NCBI RefSeq assembly: GCF_000406145.1
Contig: NZ_CM001976.1
Span: forward strand, 1,428,730 to 1,435,214
Direction of reading: 5' to 3'
Origin: Dickeya dadantii NCPPB 898
Lineage (GTDB): Bacteria > Pseudomonadota > Gammaproteobacteria > Enterobacterales > Enterobacteriaceae
DNA: 6,485 nucleotides
The position numbers and the translations under genes were made by a program. The notes beneath the pieces were generated by a model, which saw nothing but the letters and a program-made list of their open reading frames with translations, searched no databases and had not been told where the DNA came from. This document shows positions 695-6,485 of the stretch, piece by piece; the first letter of the stretch is position 1, and every line of letters starts with the position of its first letter.

Positions 695-1213
695 ATGCCA
701 ACTCCATGCTATATCAGCATCGAAGGTAAAACTCAGGGCAATATCACCGCCGGCGCCTTTACTTCCGACTCTGTCGGCAACATCTACGTGCAGGGCCACG
801 AAGATGAGATGCTGGTGCAGGAATTCAAACACATCGTCACCGTGCCGACCGACCCGCAGTCCGGCCAGCCGTCCGGTCAGCGCGTGCACAAACCGTTCAA
901 ATTCACCGTCGCCCTGAACAAGGCCGTGCCGCTGCTGTATAACGCGCTGGCGTCCGGCGAAATGCTGCCGACCGTGACCCTGAAGTGGTACCGCACGTCT
1001 GTCGAAGGCAAGCAGGAGCATTTCTTCACCACCAAACTGACCGACGCCACCATTGTCGACATCAACAACCAGATGCCGCACTGCCAGGACCCGTCCAAGC
1101 AGGATTACACCCAGCTGATCGAAGTGTCGCTGGCGTACCGCAAAATCGACTGGGAACACACCGTGGCCGGGACTTCCGGCTCTGACGACTGGCGCGCGCC
1201 GATCGAAGCGTAA
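695..1213 (+). CDS. hcp: Type VI secretion tube protein Hcp (TssD), 172 aa
   Basis: The translation MPTPCYISIEGKTQGNITAG...HEDEMLVQEF.H.VTVPTDPQSGQPSGQRVHKPFKFTVALNKAVPLLYNAL...KWYRTS.EGKQE.FFTTKL...MPHCQDP...AGTSGSDDWRAPIEA is near-identical in pattern to enterobacterial Hcp. AGGAG at 683-687 lies 7 nt before the ATG. The size (172 aa) is typical. Confidence 0.97.
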   Translation: MPTPCYISIEGKTQGNITAGAFTSDSVGNIYVQGHEDEMLVQEFKHIVTVPTDPQSGQPSGQRVHKPFKFTVALNKAVPLLYNALASGEMLPTVTLKWYRTSVEGKQEHFFTTKLTDATIVDINNQMPHCQDPSKQDYTQLIEVSLAYRKIDWEHTVAGTSGSDDWRAPIEA

Positions 1214-1255: not shown

Positions 1256-1378
1256 GTCTGCGCTGAGCGATGACGCGCCCATCGCTGAGTGCAGTCGTAT
1301 TGATCATGATTTTACGCTGACGCACGGCATCAGACCGGGTGTGCGGTAGCTATGGAGCCGGGGAAAGGAGGAAGCAAG

Positions 1379-3416
1379 GTGGCTAACAGTACAGGATTGC
1401 AGTTTACCGTGAAAATCGGCGCATTGGCGGACACCACCTTCGCGGTGGTGGATTTCGAACTGAGTGAGGCGCTGAACCAGCCGTTTGCGCTGTCGCTGAG
1501 TCTCGCCAGCAGTCAGGCCGATATCGATTTCGGCGCGGTGCTGGACCAACCGTGCGAGCTGATGGTGTGGTACGAAGGCGCACTGCAACGCCGGGTCAGC
1601 GGTATCGTCAGCCGCTTTGCCCAGGGCGACACCGGCTTTCGCCGCACCCGCTATCAGGCCGAGGTGCGCCCGGCGCTGTGGCGGCTGGGGCTGCGTACCA
1701 ACGCCCGTATCTTCCAGACCAAAAAGCCGGATGAGATTATCACCGAACTTGCTGCAAGAAGCCGGGATCACCGATTTTGCCTTTGCCCTGCGCCACGACC
1801 ACGCGGTGCGCGAATACTGCGTGCAGTACCGCGAAAGCGACCTGGCGTTCATCCACCGGCTGGCGGCGGAAGAAGGGCTGTTCTACTTCCACGAATTCGA
1901 AGCCGACAAGCACCGGGTGGTGTTTGCCGACGACGCCGGCGCGCTGACCAAAGGCCCCGAGCTGTTTTTTAACCTGGCAACACAAGGGCTGACCGAAGGC
2001 GCCTACGTGCGCCGTTTCCGCTACGCCGAAGCGGTAAGCACCGCCGAGGTGGAACTGAAAGATTACTGTTTTAAAACCCCGGCCTACGGGCTGTCGCACA
2101 AAAAGACCAGTAACGAGCTGGAGCACCAGCGCGAATCCTACCAGCACTTCGACTACCCCGGTCGTTTTAAGCAAGATCCGAGCGGCAAGGCGTTTACCGG
2201 CTACCGACTGGACGCGCTGCGTGCGGATGCGATAACCGGTGTGGGGGAGTCCAACGCCGCCGAACTGCGGCCGGGCAGCGCTTTTACCCTGACTGAACAC
2301 CCGAACCCGGCGTTCAATCTGGCCTGGCAGGTGGTGGCGGTGACCCACAGCGGTCAGCAGCCACAGGCGCTGGAAGAGGAAAGCGGCGGCGAGCCGACCA
2401 CGCTCAGCAACAGCTTTGAGGTGGTGAAAGGATCCACCACCTGGCGCGCGGCGCTGCCGTACAAGCCGATGGTAGACGGCCCGCAGATTGCCACCGTGGT
2501 CGGCCCGGCGGGCGAAGAGATTTACTGCGATAAATTTGGCCGGGTGAAGCTGCAATTCCCGTGGGACCGCTACGGCGCCAGCGACGACCAGAGCTCCTGC
2601 TGGGTGCGGGTCAGTCAGGGCTGGGCCGGCGGGCAGTACGGGTTAATCGCCATTCCACGTATCGGCCATGAGGTGGTGGTGAGCTTTCTGGAGGGCGACC
2701 CGGACCAGCCGCTTATCACCGGCCGGACGTTCCATGCCACCAACCCCACGCCGTATGTGCTGCCGGAGCACAAAACACGCACTACGCTGCGTACCGATAC
2801 CCACAAAGGCAGCGGTTTCAACGAACTTCGTTTCGAAGATGAGGCCACCCGGGAGCAGATTTACCTGCACGCACAGAAAGACATGGACGCGGTGATCAAC
2901 AACATTCATCGCCAGAGCGTCGGGTTGGATCAGCATCTGAGTGTGGCGAACGACCAGTTCCAGCGGGTGGATCGCCATAGCCATCGCACCATCGGGCAGG
3001 ATGATTTTGAACAGATTGGGCAGGACCATCATCAATCGATTGGTCGCCATCTCGTACAGAGCATCACCCAGTCATTCAAGCGCTTTATCGGCGGCGGCGA
3101 GATCACCCGTATTGAAGGCAGCCGCCAGACTACGCTGTCTGGTTCGGAAGAGACGCTGATCGGCGCGCATCAGCGGGTGCTGGTCAATACCGACAGCTAC
3201 CTCAAGGCGGCGGATATCGTGCTGGAAGCCGGGCAGTCGCTGACTATCAAAGCACCCGGCGGATTTATCAAAATCGACGGCGCCGGCGTCACCATCTCCG
3301 GCACGGTGGTGAAAATCAACGACGGCGGTTCCGCAGGCGCGGGCACGGCGCCGGTGTCGATCGAGCCGGAGGCTCCCACCAGACCGACGCTGCCAGATGC
3401 GCCGGACCGGCGTTAA
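1379..3416 (+). pseudogene. vgrG: VgrG (TssI) spike protein gene with a +1 frame disruption near 1748-1751
   Basis: The 5' part (track ORF 1352-1972) reads (M)[43 protein letters not shown]...[36 protein letters not shown] and then turns into Arg/Pro-rich nonsense. VgrG-like sequence resumes one frame over (track ORF 1617-3416) as [47 protein letters not shown]. That frame continues through the gp5 OB-fold ([33 protein letters not shown]...[47 protein letters not shown]) and the beta-helix repeats to a stop at 3414-3416. The likely true start is GTG 1379, with GGAGG at 1367-1371 and a 7-nt spacer. ATG 1352 has no Shine-Dalgarno sequence. Removing one nucleotide from CTTG (1748-1751) gives a single 678-codon ORF. 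Confidence 0.88.
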
Positions 3417-3425
3417 GGAGTCACC

Positions 3426-4796
3426 ATGCCAGGAGCTGCGCGTTTAGGGGACAGCTGTGCCGGTCACGGCTGCTTTCCCGCCACCCCGGTGATTGCGGGC
3501 AGTGGCGATGTGATTATCAATGGCAAACCGGCGGCGCGTAAAGGCGATGCGGTGTTGCTGCACGCCTGCCCATGCCCGAATATGCCGCACGGGGTTCACA
3601 GCCGGGCGATTTCCGCCGGTTCTGGTACGGTGATCATCAACGGTAAGCTGGCCGCCCGTATCGGCGATGCCATCGGCTGTGGCGGCTCGGTGGCGGCCGG
3701 CAGCGGGGATGTGATTATTGGCGATACGCCTTACCAGTCGCCGGTTAAATCCTGTGCGGAACAGTCGGCGAAAAGCCGCGCTCCGCTGCTGGCGCTAACG
3801 CCGATGCTGCTGCCCGCCATGATGGAATGGGCAGCAACCGTCGAACTGCCGGTGCTGGATGAAGCGCTGACGGTATTACAGCGTAAGGATCGCTATCTGG
3901 CGCGCGCTAAGCTGGCGCAACAGGCGGCGACCATGCCGAGCCTGAAAGACGCCGCCACCCGACTGGCGTTTAACAACGACAGCATCTTGCGCGCCGAAGC
4001 GGCGCAGTATGTTTATCCGGTGGATGAATTTAGACGTAAGGTAAGGGCTGTTTTGCCAAAGCCTCCTGTTGGACTTGAGGTTATTGATATAAAGAGCTTT
4101 CCTAAAATTACTCCTAAGCAATTTACTGACCCAGACTCAGGATTTGGAGCAGCGCTATTTAAGTCATCTATTAATAATGAAACGATGTTGACATTTAGAG
4201 GAACCAATAATGGTGTAACAGGTGCTAAAGATTGGCTTACAAATGGGGCTCAAGGAATAGGATTTGAAACAGCTCAATATAATCAGGCAATGGATTTGGC
4301 AAAATTGATGAAGAGACTTGTATCTCCAGAACCTGTTATTGTTGGTCACTCTTTAGGGGGAGGGTTAGCTTCTGCTGCTGTTAGTGCAACCAAATTACCA
4401 GGGTATATTTTTAATGCTGCTGGTCTTCATGCCAACACTGTTGCTAGGCAACAAGGTGCTGATTTGGCTACTACCAGTTCCTTAATTAAAACTCAAGCAG
4501 TAGATGGCGAAATCCTTACTATGCTCCAATCCTATGGCAAAGTTGCTGTACCGGGTTTACTTTCTGGTGCGGGTGCTTTGATCGGGGGTAAGGTTGGGGC
4601 TATTGCTGGTGGAGTGGCTGGTATTACGACATTGTTAGCTGGCTCTCTTCCCAGCGCTTTAGGTGAGATGAAAACATTACCTAGTTCAGGGGGATCTCCA
4701 TTAGCCCGACACGGCATGGACCAAGTTGTAGCCGGTATTGAAAAAGAAAAGAAAGAAGATATTGGAAAAATTACCAGCACGCTTAAGGGGGCATAA
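3426..4796 (+). CDS. tle: PAAR-domain T6SS effector fused to a GxSxG alpha/beta-hydrolase (class-3-like lipase/phospholipase) toxin domain, 456 aa
   Basis: The N-terminus (aa 1-100) is a PAAR spike-tip domain: AARLGDSCAGHG...VIINGKPAARKGD...VIINGKLAARIGD...GSGDVIIGD, with Cys/His metal-ligand candidates. The C-terminus has lipase_3-type motifs: GFGAALFKS...MLTFRGTNNGVTGAKDWLTN, the nucleophile elbow VIVGHSLGGGLA (Ser309, nt 4350-4352), a candidate Asp360 (4503-4505) and a candidate His429 (4710-4712). AGGAG at 3416-3420 precedes the ATG, 9 nt after the vgrG stop. The symbol tle is used only in the generic sense of type VI lipase effector, and no Tle1-4 subfamily is assigned. Confidence 0.9.
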   Translation: MPGAARLGDSCAGHGCFPATPVIAGSGDVIINGKPAARKGDAVLLHACPCPNMPHGVHSRAISAGSGTVIINGKLAARIGDAIGCGGSVAAGSGDVIIGDTPYQSPVKSCAEQSAKSRAPLLALTPMLLPAMMEWAATVELPVLDEALTVLQRKDRYLARAKLAQQAATMPSLKDAATRLAFNNDSILRAEAAQYVYPVDEFRRKVRAVLPKPPVGLEVIDIKSFPKITPKQFTDPDSGFGAALFKSSINNETMLTFRGTNNGVTGAKDWLTNGAQGIGFETAQYNQAMDLAKLMKRLVSPEPVIVGHSLGGGLASAAVSATKLPGYIFNAAGLHANTVARQQGADLATTSSLIKTQAVDGEILTMLQSYGKVAVPGLLSGAGALIGGKVGAIAGGVAGITTLLAGSLPSALGEMKTLPSSGGSPLARHGMDQVVAGIEKEKKEDIGKITSTLKGA

Positions 4797-5575
4797 TGCG
4801 ATGGTTACAGAAAATCAAATGGATCGCCGTATTGTTTGCGGGAATATTGACCGCCTGTCAGGCCGGAGGGCACAGCATGCAGGCCAGTGAATTGTTCCAG
4901 CCACCGATGGCGGCTTTATTGCAGACCATCCGCAAAGGTGATGAAGCGGAAGCACGGCGCCAGCTAGCCCAGGGGCTGAATCTGAATATTCAGGGTAAAG
5001 AAGGGATTACGCCGCTGCTGTGGCTGATTTATGAAACGCAGGATAAGAACGCAGTACGGCTGGCGTTAAAACTGGGGGCCGATCCAAATTACAAAGATGG
5101 CTCAGGCGACAGTGCGGTAAACCGGGTATCCGGTGTGCGTGATCCGGACTGGTTGCGCATTGTTCTGGATGCCGGGGGAAATCCGAATGCCATTGGGAGA
5201 CTTGAGCAACCGGCGTTATTTAGTGCGATAGGTGAAGAGCGCTGGGCCGATATCAAACTGTTGGTAGAGCGAGGGGCAGATATAAATTTAAAAGATAGTT
5301 TGGATAGAAACAGTGTGTTGTATGCGGGGTATTTGAATAAATATGAAATCGCATATTGGCTAATAGAAAAGGGTGCTGATATTACCATATATGATGCAAC
5401 AGGTAGTAATATGGCATGGACTGTGGAAGATAGTTTATCTGTTATGCCACATAATGCAGCGTCGTATCCGTGGGGCATTAAAGTAAGAGAATTGCTACAA
5501 CAACGCGGTATTAAATTTCCCCCCTTATCTCCGGCAGAAGTACGGGAGCGCCGTGCTAAAGGGGAGCCGCTTTGA
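4796..5575 (+). CDS. tli: Ankyrin-repeat lipoprotein, putative cognate immunity protein for the lipase effector, 259 aa
   Basis: The start ATG overlaps the effector stop (TAATG, 4794-4798), which suggests translational coupling. The N-terminus MRWLQKIKWIAVLFAGILTAC is a lipoprotein signal peptide with lipobox L-T-A-C (Cys21, 4856-4858). The body contains several ANK repeats (GITPLLWLIYE..NAVRLALKLGADPNYKD; DWLRIVLDAGGNPNA; RWADIKLLVERGADINLKD; YEIAYWLIEKGADITIYD). The position directly 3' of a periplasm-acting lipase toxin fits an immunity role. Confidence 0.88.
   Translation: MRWLQKIKWIAVLFAGILTACQAGGHSMQASELFQPPMAALLQTIRKGDEAEARRQLAQGLNLNIQGKEGITPLLWLIYETQDKNAVRLALKLGADPNYKDGSGDSAVNRVSGVRDPDWLRIVLDAGGNPNAIGRLEQPALFSAIGEERWADIKLLVERGADINLKDSLDRNSVLYAGYLNKYEIAYWLIEKGADITIYDATGSNMAWTVEDSLSVMPHNAASYPWGIKVRELLQQRGIKFPPLSPAEVRERRAKGEPL
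4852..5290 (+). repeat. Direct repeat copy A (about 435 bp, 5' two-thirds of tli copy 1)
   Basis: My hand alignment to 5616-6054 (offset 764 bp) finds about 26 mismatches and no indels, or about 94% identity. Identity starts within a few nt of the lipobox Cys codon and drops abruptly after ...GCAGATAT(A/C)AATTTA. Confidence 0.85.
4865..4879 (+). promoter_or_regulatory. Internal ribosome-binding site plus in-frame ATG (Met28) just after the lipobox Cys of tli copy 1
   Basis: GGAGG at 4865-4869 is followed by the 7-nt spacer GCACAGC and ATG at 4877-4879. The ATG is in frame, 7 codons after Cys21. The Shine-Dalgarno sequence is stronger than the one at the annotated start. Confidence 0.55.
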
Positions 5576-6339
5576 GGTGGTGGCATTGTCTGCTGGCTTG
5601 CGTGCCGCTGTTAAGCGCCTGTCAGGCAGGAGGGCACAGCATGCAGGCCAGTGAGTTGTTCCAGCCACCGATGGCGGCCTTATTGCAGGCCATCCGCAAA
5701 GGTGATGAAGCGGAAGCACGGCGTCAGCTAGCCCAGGGGCTGAATCTGAATATTCACGGTAAAGAAGGGATTACGCCGCTGCTGTGGTTGATTTATGAAA
5801 CGCAGGATAAGAACGCGGTACGGCTGGCGCTAAAGCTGGGCGCTGACCCGAATTATAAAGATGGTTCAGGCGACAGCGCGGTAAACCGGGTATCCGGTGT
5901 GCGTGATCCGGACTGGTTGCGCATTGTTCTGGATGCCGGGGGAAATCCGAATGCCATTGGGAGACTTGGTCAACCGGCATTATTGAGTGCGATCAATGAA
6001 GAGCGCTGGGCCGATATCAAACTGTTGGTAGAGCGTGGGGCAGATATCAATTTAGCAGACAGGCAGAAAAGAAATAGCGCGCTTTATGCTGCGTATATCA
6101 ATCAATATGAGATTGTTTATTGGCTAATAGAGCGTGGTGCTAAAGTCGACACTTATTCTGCCACCGGTGGCAGCCTGGCCTGGCGGGTATATGAAAGCCT
6201 GTCAATAATGGCGCAGAATTCGCCACAATATCCCTGGTTGTTAAAGGTTAAACAGCAGTTACAACAGCGCGGTATTAATTTCCCCCCGCTGTCTCCGGCA
6301 GAGGTACAGGATAAATGGGAACGGGGTGAATTCCTTTAA
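5572..6339 (+). CDS. tli: Second ankyrin-repeat lipoprotein paralog (putative additional or orphan immunity protein), 255 aa from a TTG start
   Basis: This is a paralog of the upstream gene. The only in-frame start that includes a signal peptide is TTG 5572-5574, which overlaps the upstream stop (TTGA, 5572-5575). GGGGAG lies 5 nt upstream. The signal peptide is short: MRWWHCLLACVPLLSAC, with lipobox L-S-A-C (Cys17, 5620-5622). The 5' end is uncertain, and translation may begin mainly at the internal ATG 5641. Confidence 0.8.
   Translation: MRWWHCLLACVPLLSACQAGGHSMQASELFQPPMAALLQAIRKGDEAEARRQLAQGLNLNIHGKEGITPLLWLIYETQDKNAVRLALKLGADPNYKDGSGDSAVNRVSGVRDPDWLRIVLDAGGNPNAIGRLGQPALLSAINEERWADIKLLVERGADINLADRQKRNSALYAAYINQYEIVYWLIERGAKVDTYSATGGSLAWRVYESLSIMAQNSPQYPWLLKVKQQLQQRGINFPPLSPAEVQDKWERGEFL
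5616..6054 (+). repeat. Direct repeat copy B (about 435 bp, 5' two-thirds of tli copy 2)
   Basis: This is the partner of 4852-5290. See that entry for the alignment details. Confidence 0.85.
5629..5643 (+). promoter_or_regulatory. Internal ribosome-binding site plus in-frame ATG (Met24) just after the lipobox Cys of tli copy 2
   Basis: The arrangement matches copy 1: GGAGG at 5629-5633, the 7-nt spacer GCACAGC, and ATG at 5641-5643, 7 codons after Cys17. It is conserved even though the upstream signal-peptide codons are unrelated between the copies. Confidence 0.55.
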
Positions 6340-6485
6340 AAAAGACATCGCGGTAATTCTGTCCGTATTTCAATAGCAATATATTATTTTTTTTCGTCAT
6401 CGTGGTGGGGTTTATTTCCTCAGCCGAGGTTTGTCGCTGTTCTCATTGTCCGGTTTTTTCTTATTTAAATAACGATTAATTATCC

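Follow-up and report, generated by a model that had tools for sequence, protein, structure and literature searches.

Immunity proteins against lipases of the Tle6 family raise a paradox that was described in Enterobacter cloacae: the immunity protein activates its own toxin, and a cytosolic pool of an otherwise exported protein is needed. The origin of such a pool is the question raised by a type VI secretion system (T6SS) effector island of Dickeya dadantii, a stretch of 6,485 nt referred to below as the window (coordinates are positions in it, and all features lie on its plus strand). Two tandem genes of this island, tli1 and tli2, code for ankyrin-repeat immunity lipoproteins and follow tle, which encodes a lipase fused to a PAAR domain. 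Directly past the lipobox cysteine, each tli gene carries an inner Shine-Dalgarno (SD) sequence followed, after seven nucleotides, by an in-frame ATG. An earlier interpretation made from these letters (the sequence-only reading) had proposed that this element yields a cytosolic isoform of the immunity protein. Judging by a comparison of homologues, no synonymous feature of tli is more strongly protected across several genera than the canonical internal SD-ATG. We consider it probable that every tli gene contains two in-frame ribosome binding sites, the outer one giving the immunity lipoprotein and the inner one giving a 232-aa cytosolic ankyrin protein that licenses activation of PAAR-Tle.

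In E. cloacae, periplasmic Tli gives immunity to the periplasm-acting lipase Tle (Jensen et al., bioRxiv 10.1101/2023.03.28.534661; J Bacteriol 2023), and Δtli cells are unable to deploy active Tle (bioRxiv 10.1101/2023.03.28.534661). Deployment is restored by plasmid-borne Tli-Δ23, which starts at Met24, and cytosolic Tli was described as "presumably" made from Met10, Met16 or Met24 (Jensen et al.). Tli without its signal sequence (Δss-Tli) promotes a methylglyoxal crosslink between Arg180 and Lys461 that activates the lipase, Arg180, Glu458 and Lys461 being essential for crosslinking, and the family was named Tle6 (PMC11470151). What the sequence-only reading stated about E. cloacae Tle/Tli agrees with this literature (bioRxiv 10.1101/2023.03.28.534661; PMC11470151). 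E. cloacae Tli begins MKSFLSGWIMLCLILMVQGCKQNMDLKPDNYF, with Met24 four residues past Cys20. The crystallised activating Δss-Tli chain comprises 230 of 253 residues, which fits a start at Met24 since this is the length from Met24 to the end of the 253-aa protein. The concept of dual localisation is already published for E. cloacae, and what is new here is the comparative evidence.

In tli1, positions 4856-4879 read TGT CAG GCC GGA GGG CAC AGC ATG and code for C-Q-A-G-G-H-S-M. The inner SD GGAGG (4865..4869) is formed by the codons of Gly24 and Gly25, and the 7-nt spacer GCACAGC (4870-4876) separates it from the inner start ATG of Met28 (4877..4879). In tli2, the inner SD is found at 5629..5633 (AGGAGG if the preceding A is included) and the inner start, Met24, at 5641..5643. 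The inner ATG stands seven codons past the lipobox Cys in both genes, and the same in-frame 15-mer, GGAGG-N7-ATG, is present at 4865-4879 and 5629-5643, exactly as the sequence-only reading had described it. These are the only two matches to this pattern on both strands of the window (shuffle mean 0.22); the two sites are paralogous and hence not independent. The predicted cytosolic products extend from 4877 to 5575 and from 5641 to 6339, and both would be 232 aa long. A product about 27 residues shorter had been announced, which is right with respect to the tli1 precursor (23 residues for tli2) but not with respect to the mature lipoprotein, from which the predicted product would differ by 7 residues plus the lipid, a point that matters for any immunoblot based on size. 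The product of the tli1 inner start would begin M28-QASELFQPPMAALLQTIR, and this N-terminus is non-tryptic because the residue before it is Ser.

The strength of SD sequences was expressed as the energy of their duplex with the anti-SD ACCUCCUUA. The inner SDs of tli1 and tli2 reach -10.0 and -10.8 kcal/mol and rank 3rd and 4th among the 162 ATGs of the window. The outer SD of tli1, TAAGGGGG (4784..4791), lies 4 nt before ATG 4796 and reaches -11.2 kcal/mol; that of tli2, AAAGGGGAG (5558..5566), lies 5 nt before TTG 5572, is made of the C-terminal Lys-Gly-Glu codons of tli1 and reaches -7.8 kcal/mol. The proposal that the inner SD is better than that of either annotated start thus holds for tli2 and has to be given up for tli1.

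Is this element kept because it is a start site? A total of 144 homologues and 64 genomic loci were collected, from which 63 tli copies belonging to 40 loci, down to 38% identity, were compared; they come from Dickeya, Brenneria, Samsonia, Pectobacterium, Erwinia, Lonsdalea, Aeromonas, Shewanella, Vibrio and several metagenome-assembled genomes (MAGs). All 63 copies have ATG at the codon that aligns with Met28, and Met28 is among the 23 invariant columns of an alignment of 22 sequences (alignment A1). The first Gly codon of the inner SD, Gly24, is GGA in 51 of 55 cases and GGG in the other 4, never GGT or GGC, whereas GGA makes up only 2-38% (about 17% overall) of the codons at 14 other conserved Gly columns of the same sequences. 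At the second Gly codon, GGA, GGG, GGT and GGC all occur freely, as expected if only GGAGG matters. With 0.38 bit, the third position of Gly24 has a lower entropy than any other of the 46 conserved four-fold columns, for most of which 1.5-2.0 bits were obtained. When the set was thinned to 17 representatives below 75% identity, this position again had the lowest entropy among 44 columns (12 A, 1 G), the next-lowest column having 1.24 bits and the median being 1.81. All four-fold columns share one phylogeny and therefore provide an internal control for relatedness.

The position of the motif is constrained as well. Vibrio sp. MA40-2 (C-S-P-L-S-N-V-M-G-G-T-K-M) and Shewanella hanedai have a longer linker after the Cys, and GGAGG is still found 7 nt from the ATG; this spacing, fixed despite the length of the linker, indicates that the motif tracks the start codon and not the lipobox Cys. 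A duplex energy of -8 kcal/mol or lower is attained by 55/63 inner sites but by 4.3% of 899 further ATG triplets from these coding sequences. The most distant members of the 63-copy set have weaker purine tracts such as AGGAAAG and AAGGAAG. Taken together, these comparisons point to selection on the inner start element beyond the needs of the protein. The sequence-only reading had named the internal start as the conserved element and had suggested an alignment of homologues as a check on SD conservation beyond what the protein requires; both the invariant ATG and the constraint on the Gly24 codon bear it out. As a separate observation, the copy of a Candidatus Symbiopectobacterium (L029, 3926-4726) has GTA GGG in place of GGA GGG, so that its SD is disrupted (-4.3 kcal/mol), and an unusually long N-terminal extension of 47 residues; this disruption may represent decay in the reduced genome of a symbiont.

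Comparison of the two paralogs of the window is less informative. It had been argued that the C-Q-A-G-G-H-S-M block, where GCC/GCA is the sole difference between tli1 and tli2, stands out against signal-peptide codons that are completely different. The identity of the block and the divergence of the signal-peptide codons are both real. The block is not special, since it lies inside a tract of about 94% identity that extends over ~430 nt from the Cys codon (4856-5575 compared with 5620-6339), and the paralog comparison was accordingly rejected as evidence of selection. Identity falls to roughly 60% in the 3' third. This pattern fits gene conversion of the 5' half combined with diversification of the part that contacts the lipase according to the E. 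cloacae structure.

Longer arrays were found elsewhere, with six tandem tli copies in Dickeya oryzae (L002, 1700-6300) and five in Brenneria alni (L003, 4000-7850), at a period of ~765 nt. Each of these copies has its own inner GGAGG-N7-ATG or a GGGGGG variant. One exception was found in the Dickeya-type clade, the third array copy of an Aeromonas locus (L068, 2501-3262), where ATG is changed to CTG and GGAGG is intact; in one E. cloacae genome, the second array copy (L066, 3501-4274) has Ser in place of the inner Met. No other copies lacking the inner Met were seen, and neither of these two stands first in its array. Anecdotal as they are, they hint that orphan copies can lose the inner start and with it the cytosolic isoform.

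The outer starts are also retained. The predicted signal peptide of tli1 (4796..4858), MRWLQKIKWIAVLFAGILTA followed by Cys21 (codon 4856-4858) in the lipobox L-T-A-C, was recognised by inspection of the sequence and in an AlphaFold2 (AF2) model; that of tli2 (5572..5622), MRWWHCLLACVPLLSA followed by Cys17 (codon 5620-5622) in the lipobox L-S-A-C, was recognised by inspection. Both have the basic n-region, hydrophobic core and lipobox of lipoprotein signals, and TTG 5572 is the sole start of tli2 that yields a signal peptide. An upstream in-frame start, basic n-region, hydrophobic core and lipobox are likewise retained at the DNA level in 63/63 tli copies. The 19 downstream array copies, drawn from four genera, have as outer start a TTG located inside an invariant cTTTGA junction with the preceding stop (window 5558-5575 and loci L001-L005, L009, L010, L016, L017 and L020 of our collection), and it is preceded by an SD formed by the conserved C-terminal Lys-Gly-Glu codons of the previous copy. 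The last copy of the window ends in R-G-E-F-L-TAA, and the SD and TTG context is lost there. The AF2 model of Tli1 (mean predicted local distance difference test score, pLDDT, 92.8) has a helix at residues 3-20, the signal peptide, a pLDDT that is below 50 at residues 18-25 and exceeds 90 from residue 30 or so. This profile places Met28 at the domain boundary, so that the product starting there is modelled as the folded ankyrin domain and nothing else.

Database annotation of the family brings out the start-like appearance of the inner site. Among 120 homologue clusters (P0001-P0120), 42 are annotated from the inner Met, 35 of these with a length of 232 aa, because gene finders skip the TTG and take the inner ATG; such annotations are indirect testimony that the inner site looks like a start. 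The idea that the 232-aa homologues are naturally devoid of a signal was ruled out, as the 63/63 DNA-level copies, including downstream array copies of the type listed with 232 aa, have an upstream signal, usually with a TTG start. On this evidence, annotation of the family from the inner Met looks like a systematic mis-annotation.

The function that an inner product could have depends on the relationship of this locus with the E. cloacae system. The lipase part of Tle matches PDB 7UBZ_B (phmmer E=6e-28, residues 154-451), the full-length protein is 33% identical to E. cloacae Tle (BLASTP E=6e-34), and Tli1 matches PDB 7UBZ_A (E=8e-20) as well as Ank families of Pfam. The nucleophile elbow G307-H-S309-L-G-G aligns with G339-H-S341-L-G-G of E. 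cloacae (GxSxG, Ser341), and R160, E439 and K442 align with the crosslink residues Arg180, Glu458 and Lys461. The Pfam families Phospholipase-like and DUF8093, which mark E. cloacae Tle, gave no match to the Tle of the window in the Pfam copy used, and the homology of Tle therefore rests on the PDB and BLASTP matches. By sequence, the Dickeya locus is a distant Tle6/Tli6 pair, and the view that it is the same system as E. cloacae Tle/Tli, put forward by the sequence-only reading, agrees with the conservation of the crosslink residues.

With the system of E. cloacae ATCC 13047 (ECL_01553/ECL_01554; PDB 7UBZ, 9CYS; Jensen et al. 2023, 2024), the Dickeya locus shares the lipase domain with its GxSxG motif and Arg/Glu/Lys triad, an ankyrin lipoprotein immunity gene located directly downstream and overlapping the tle stop, and a Met that follows the lipobox Cys by a few residues and marks where the folded domain starts, for which dual localisation by alternative initiation was proposed in E. 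cloacae. The differences are also clear. Both partners are distant from their E. cloacae counterparts (about 33% identity for Tle, a similar distance for Tli); Tle is fused to PAAR in Dickeya and to a DUF8093 N-domain in E. cloacae; and in Dickeya the tli genes are arrayed in tandem, their TTG starts coupled through TTGA. E. cloacae Tli has three candidate Mets (10, 16 and 24) and a weak and distant SD, its sole SD-like element, CAGGGGTG, being located 12 nt upstream of Met24 and derived from the lipobox codons, whereas Dickeya has a single canonical GGAGG-N7-ATG. The inner Met stands eight residues before the conserved Phe in E. cloacae (Met24) and six before it in Dickeya. It is nearly invariant in the Dickeya clade but not in the Enterobacter/Serratia clade, where a Met is found at the inner position in 82/120 clusters and two residues later in 8 more.

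We propose that translation from the outer start (ATG 4796 for tli1; TTG 5572, TTGA-coupled to the tli1 stop, for tli2) would give a precursor with a lipoprotein signal peptide, which would be exported, lipidated at Cys21 (tli1) or Cys17 (tli2) and provide periplasmic immunity against incoming Tle. The inner GGAGG-N7-ATG would recruit 30S subunits independently and allow translation from Met28 (tli1) or Met24 (tli2). The 232-residue product, the predicted folded ankyrin domain without signal peptide, would stay in the cytoplasm. If the pair acts like its homologue in E. cloacae, Tle6/Tli6, this cytosolic Tli would bind newly made PAAR-Tle and may permit a methylglyoxal Arg-Lys crosslink, here between R160 and K442, that would activate the lipase before T6SS export. 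While the motif, the constraint on its synonymous site, membership of the Tle6/Tli6 family and the alignment of the crosslink residues are read directly from the sequences, we infer from them initiation at the inner site, the cytosolic product and its requirement for Tle activity.

Several observations weigh against two starts per gene. Some would favour an explanation by constraint on the protein together with gene conversion, in which C-Q-A-G-G-x-S-M serves as a tether or N-cap, the GGAGG spelling is a by-product of codon preference and of homogenisation in the 5' half, and no internal initiation takes place. The Gly-Gly-x-x-Met peptide is conserved as residues, and homologues of ~30% identity, from a Nitrospirae MAG (L042, 4073) and Halopseudomonas salina (L043, 2443), have a signal peptide and then G-G-M, in which the Met precedes the conserved Phe by six residues and G-G is encoded by GGC or GGT without a clear SD. 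Conservation is therefore partly at the protein level, and the Met appears older and more widespread than the canonical SD. The tract of about 94% identity between tli1 and tli2 indicates conversion, which may carry the inner site along. Orphan downstream copies also keep the motif, though activation of Tle should be the task of the cognate Tli alone. This explanation is nevertheless unlikely, as codon preference does not account for a GGA codon that is infrequent at the other Gly columns and nearly fixed at Gly24, with the lowest synonymous entropy of 46 columns of the same phylogeny, nor for the free variation of the next Gly codon. Moreover, the distance of the motif is fixed to the ATG and not to the Cys, and an invariant Met is unusual at the edge of a domain where the AF2 model has low confidence.

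Further points against the two-start model concern the strength of the inner site and the state of knowledge in E. cloacae. By energy, the inner SD of tli1 does not surpass the outer one. In single-sequence predictions, mRNA accessibility of the inner site is ordinary, similar to that of bona fide starts, and the inner ATG of tli2 is paired in the minimum-free-energy fold. The E. cloacae start was neither mapped nor mutated in the two studies of that system (bioRxiv 10.1101/2023.03.28.534661; PMC11470151), and precursor Tli awaiting export might in principle account for the cytosolic activity there. Our literature searches found no Dickeya study of the inner element and no later mapping of Tli starts. 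A search for sigma-70-like promoters on the plus strand of 4600-6485, from which a shorter transcript might arise, found none, although this is a weak test.

A still less likely possibility is that tli2 and other downstream copies are in fact translated from the inner ATG alone, the TTG signal peptide being a decaying remnant, the protein purely cytosolic and the 232-aa annotation right. The 42 clusters annotated from the inner Met would agree with it, as would the use of TTG with a weaker SD (-4 to -9 kcal/mol) as outer start of downstream copies. Against it, the 19 downstream copies of four genera keep an open frame, cTTTGA, n-region, core and lipobox despite differing sequences, conserved K-G-E codons of the previous copy supply the SD for the TTG, and immunity to a periplasm-acting lipase needs periplasmic Tli in E. 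cloacae. That the SD-like sequence acts in elongation, as a pause site or through an mRNA structure tuning translation or export, is very improbable: predictions show a small CCUG/CAGG hairpin over the SD and a tli2 ATG paired with codons of the signal peptide, but covariation gives no support (covariation term -0.85 kcal/mol, 2/19 pairs compensatory), the invariant in-frame ATG at optimal spacing would be left unexplained and, given the length of the ribosome tunnel, the signal peptide would still be inside it during a pause at codon 28. An alignment of 15 downstream copies was also examined for an mRNA structure conserved around the inner start; the idea was discarded, as only a tiny hairpin with no meaningful covariation emerged.

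The two-start organisation proposed for tli has parallels in other systems. In-frame internal initiation gives two isoforms from one bacterial gene in IF2 (alpha and beta), ClpB (93 and 79), CheA (CheA-L and CheA-S) and the type III secretion protein SctQ (SctQ and SctQ-C). These genes likewise have an in-frame internal SD and start from which a second product arises that lacks the N-terminal part and has its own role; the truncation predicted for tli differs from theirs in that it drops a secretion signal, so that the two products would differ in compartment and not in domain content. Arrays of orphan immunity genes occur downstream of T6SS, Rhs and contact-dependent inhibition (CDI) effectors. 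The tli arrays resemble them in that the tandem paralogs, of which there are two in the window and as many as six in Dickeya oryzae, are conserved in their 5' half and diverge in the 3' half, and differ by the retention of a lipoprotein start and an inner start in every copy. The Slp lipase of Serratia marcescens and its ankyrin immunity proteins belong to the same Tle6 family (PMC11470151). The S. marcescens immunity lipoproteins read Q-G-C-K-K-N-M and differ from those of Dickeya by an SD-like AAGGA, which is located 12 nt ahead of the Met and formed by the Gln-Gly codons of the lipobox. To our knowledge, an alternative start of the Slp immunity proteins has not been studied.

The remaining features of the window are those of a T6SS effector island. 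The hcp gene (695..1213; Pfam T6SS_HCP, E=1e-32) encodes the tube protein and is followed by vgrG (1352..3416), which is split into two frames, 1352-1972 and 1617-3416, the Phage_GPD profile being divided between both open reading frames (ORFs). An extra nucleotide is present near 1749-1751, the window having CTTG where five homologous loci have CT-G (window 1745-1755); this 1-nt insertion is either a real frameshift, and vgrG a pseudogene, or an assembly error. If the frameshift is real, the spike meant to carry PAAR-Tle would be broken in this strain. Downstream, tle (3426..4796) codes for the fusion of a PAAR domain with a Tle6-type lipase, identified by Pfam, PDB and BLASTP matches; the N-terminal domain matches PAAR_motif (Pfam, E=1e-18) and PDB 4JIV_D (E=2e-16), and hcp and vgrG lie upstream. 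Its TAA stop (4794-4796) shares one base with the ATG of tli1 at 4796. The tli1 ORF (4796..5575) encodes the 259-aa precursor of an ankyrin-repeat immunity lipoprotein, identified by Ank Pfam and PDB 7UBZ_A matches and 100% identical to Dickeya dadantii proteins. The second immunity lipoprotein, of 255 aa, is encoded by the tli2 ORF (5572..6339), whose TTG start forms a TTGA overlap with the tli1 stop (5573-5575).

A wider extension of the two-start model is possible but rather doubtful, namely that two ribosome binding sites in one frame are an ancient design of the whole Tli6 family and that orphan copies deliberately retain cytosolic isoforms of their own. It is based on the Met at the edge of the domain, which is kept from Gammaproteobacteria to Nitrospirae. 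If this were so, non-cognate Tli would have a cytoplasmic job, for example activating or titrating recombinant or newly acquired Tle variants, and the TTGA-coupled TTG outer starts would set a periplasmic:cytosolic ratio specific to each copy.

For specialists, this result will not come as a surprise. Conservation of the inner site supports the model of alternative initiation, which is still presumed in E. cloacae, and pinpoints the exact nucleotides to mutate. About a third of the database entries of the family start at the inner Met and miss the signal peptide, which hides the periplasmic role of these proteins. In the Dickeya/Pectobacterium/Aeromonas branch, a single canonical internal start that appears to be under selection makes the presumed origin of the cytosolic pool directly testable. 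If the model is true, changing GGA GGG to GGC GGC, or Met28 to Leu (M28L), would separate immunity from activation and leave the mature lipoprotein untouched.

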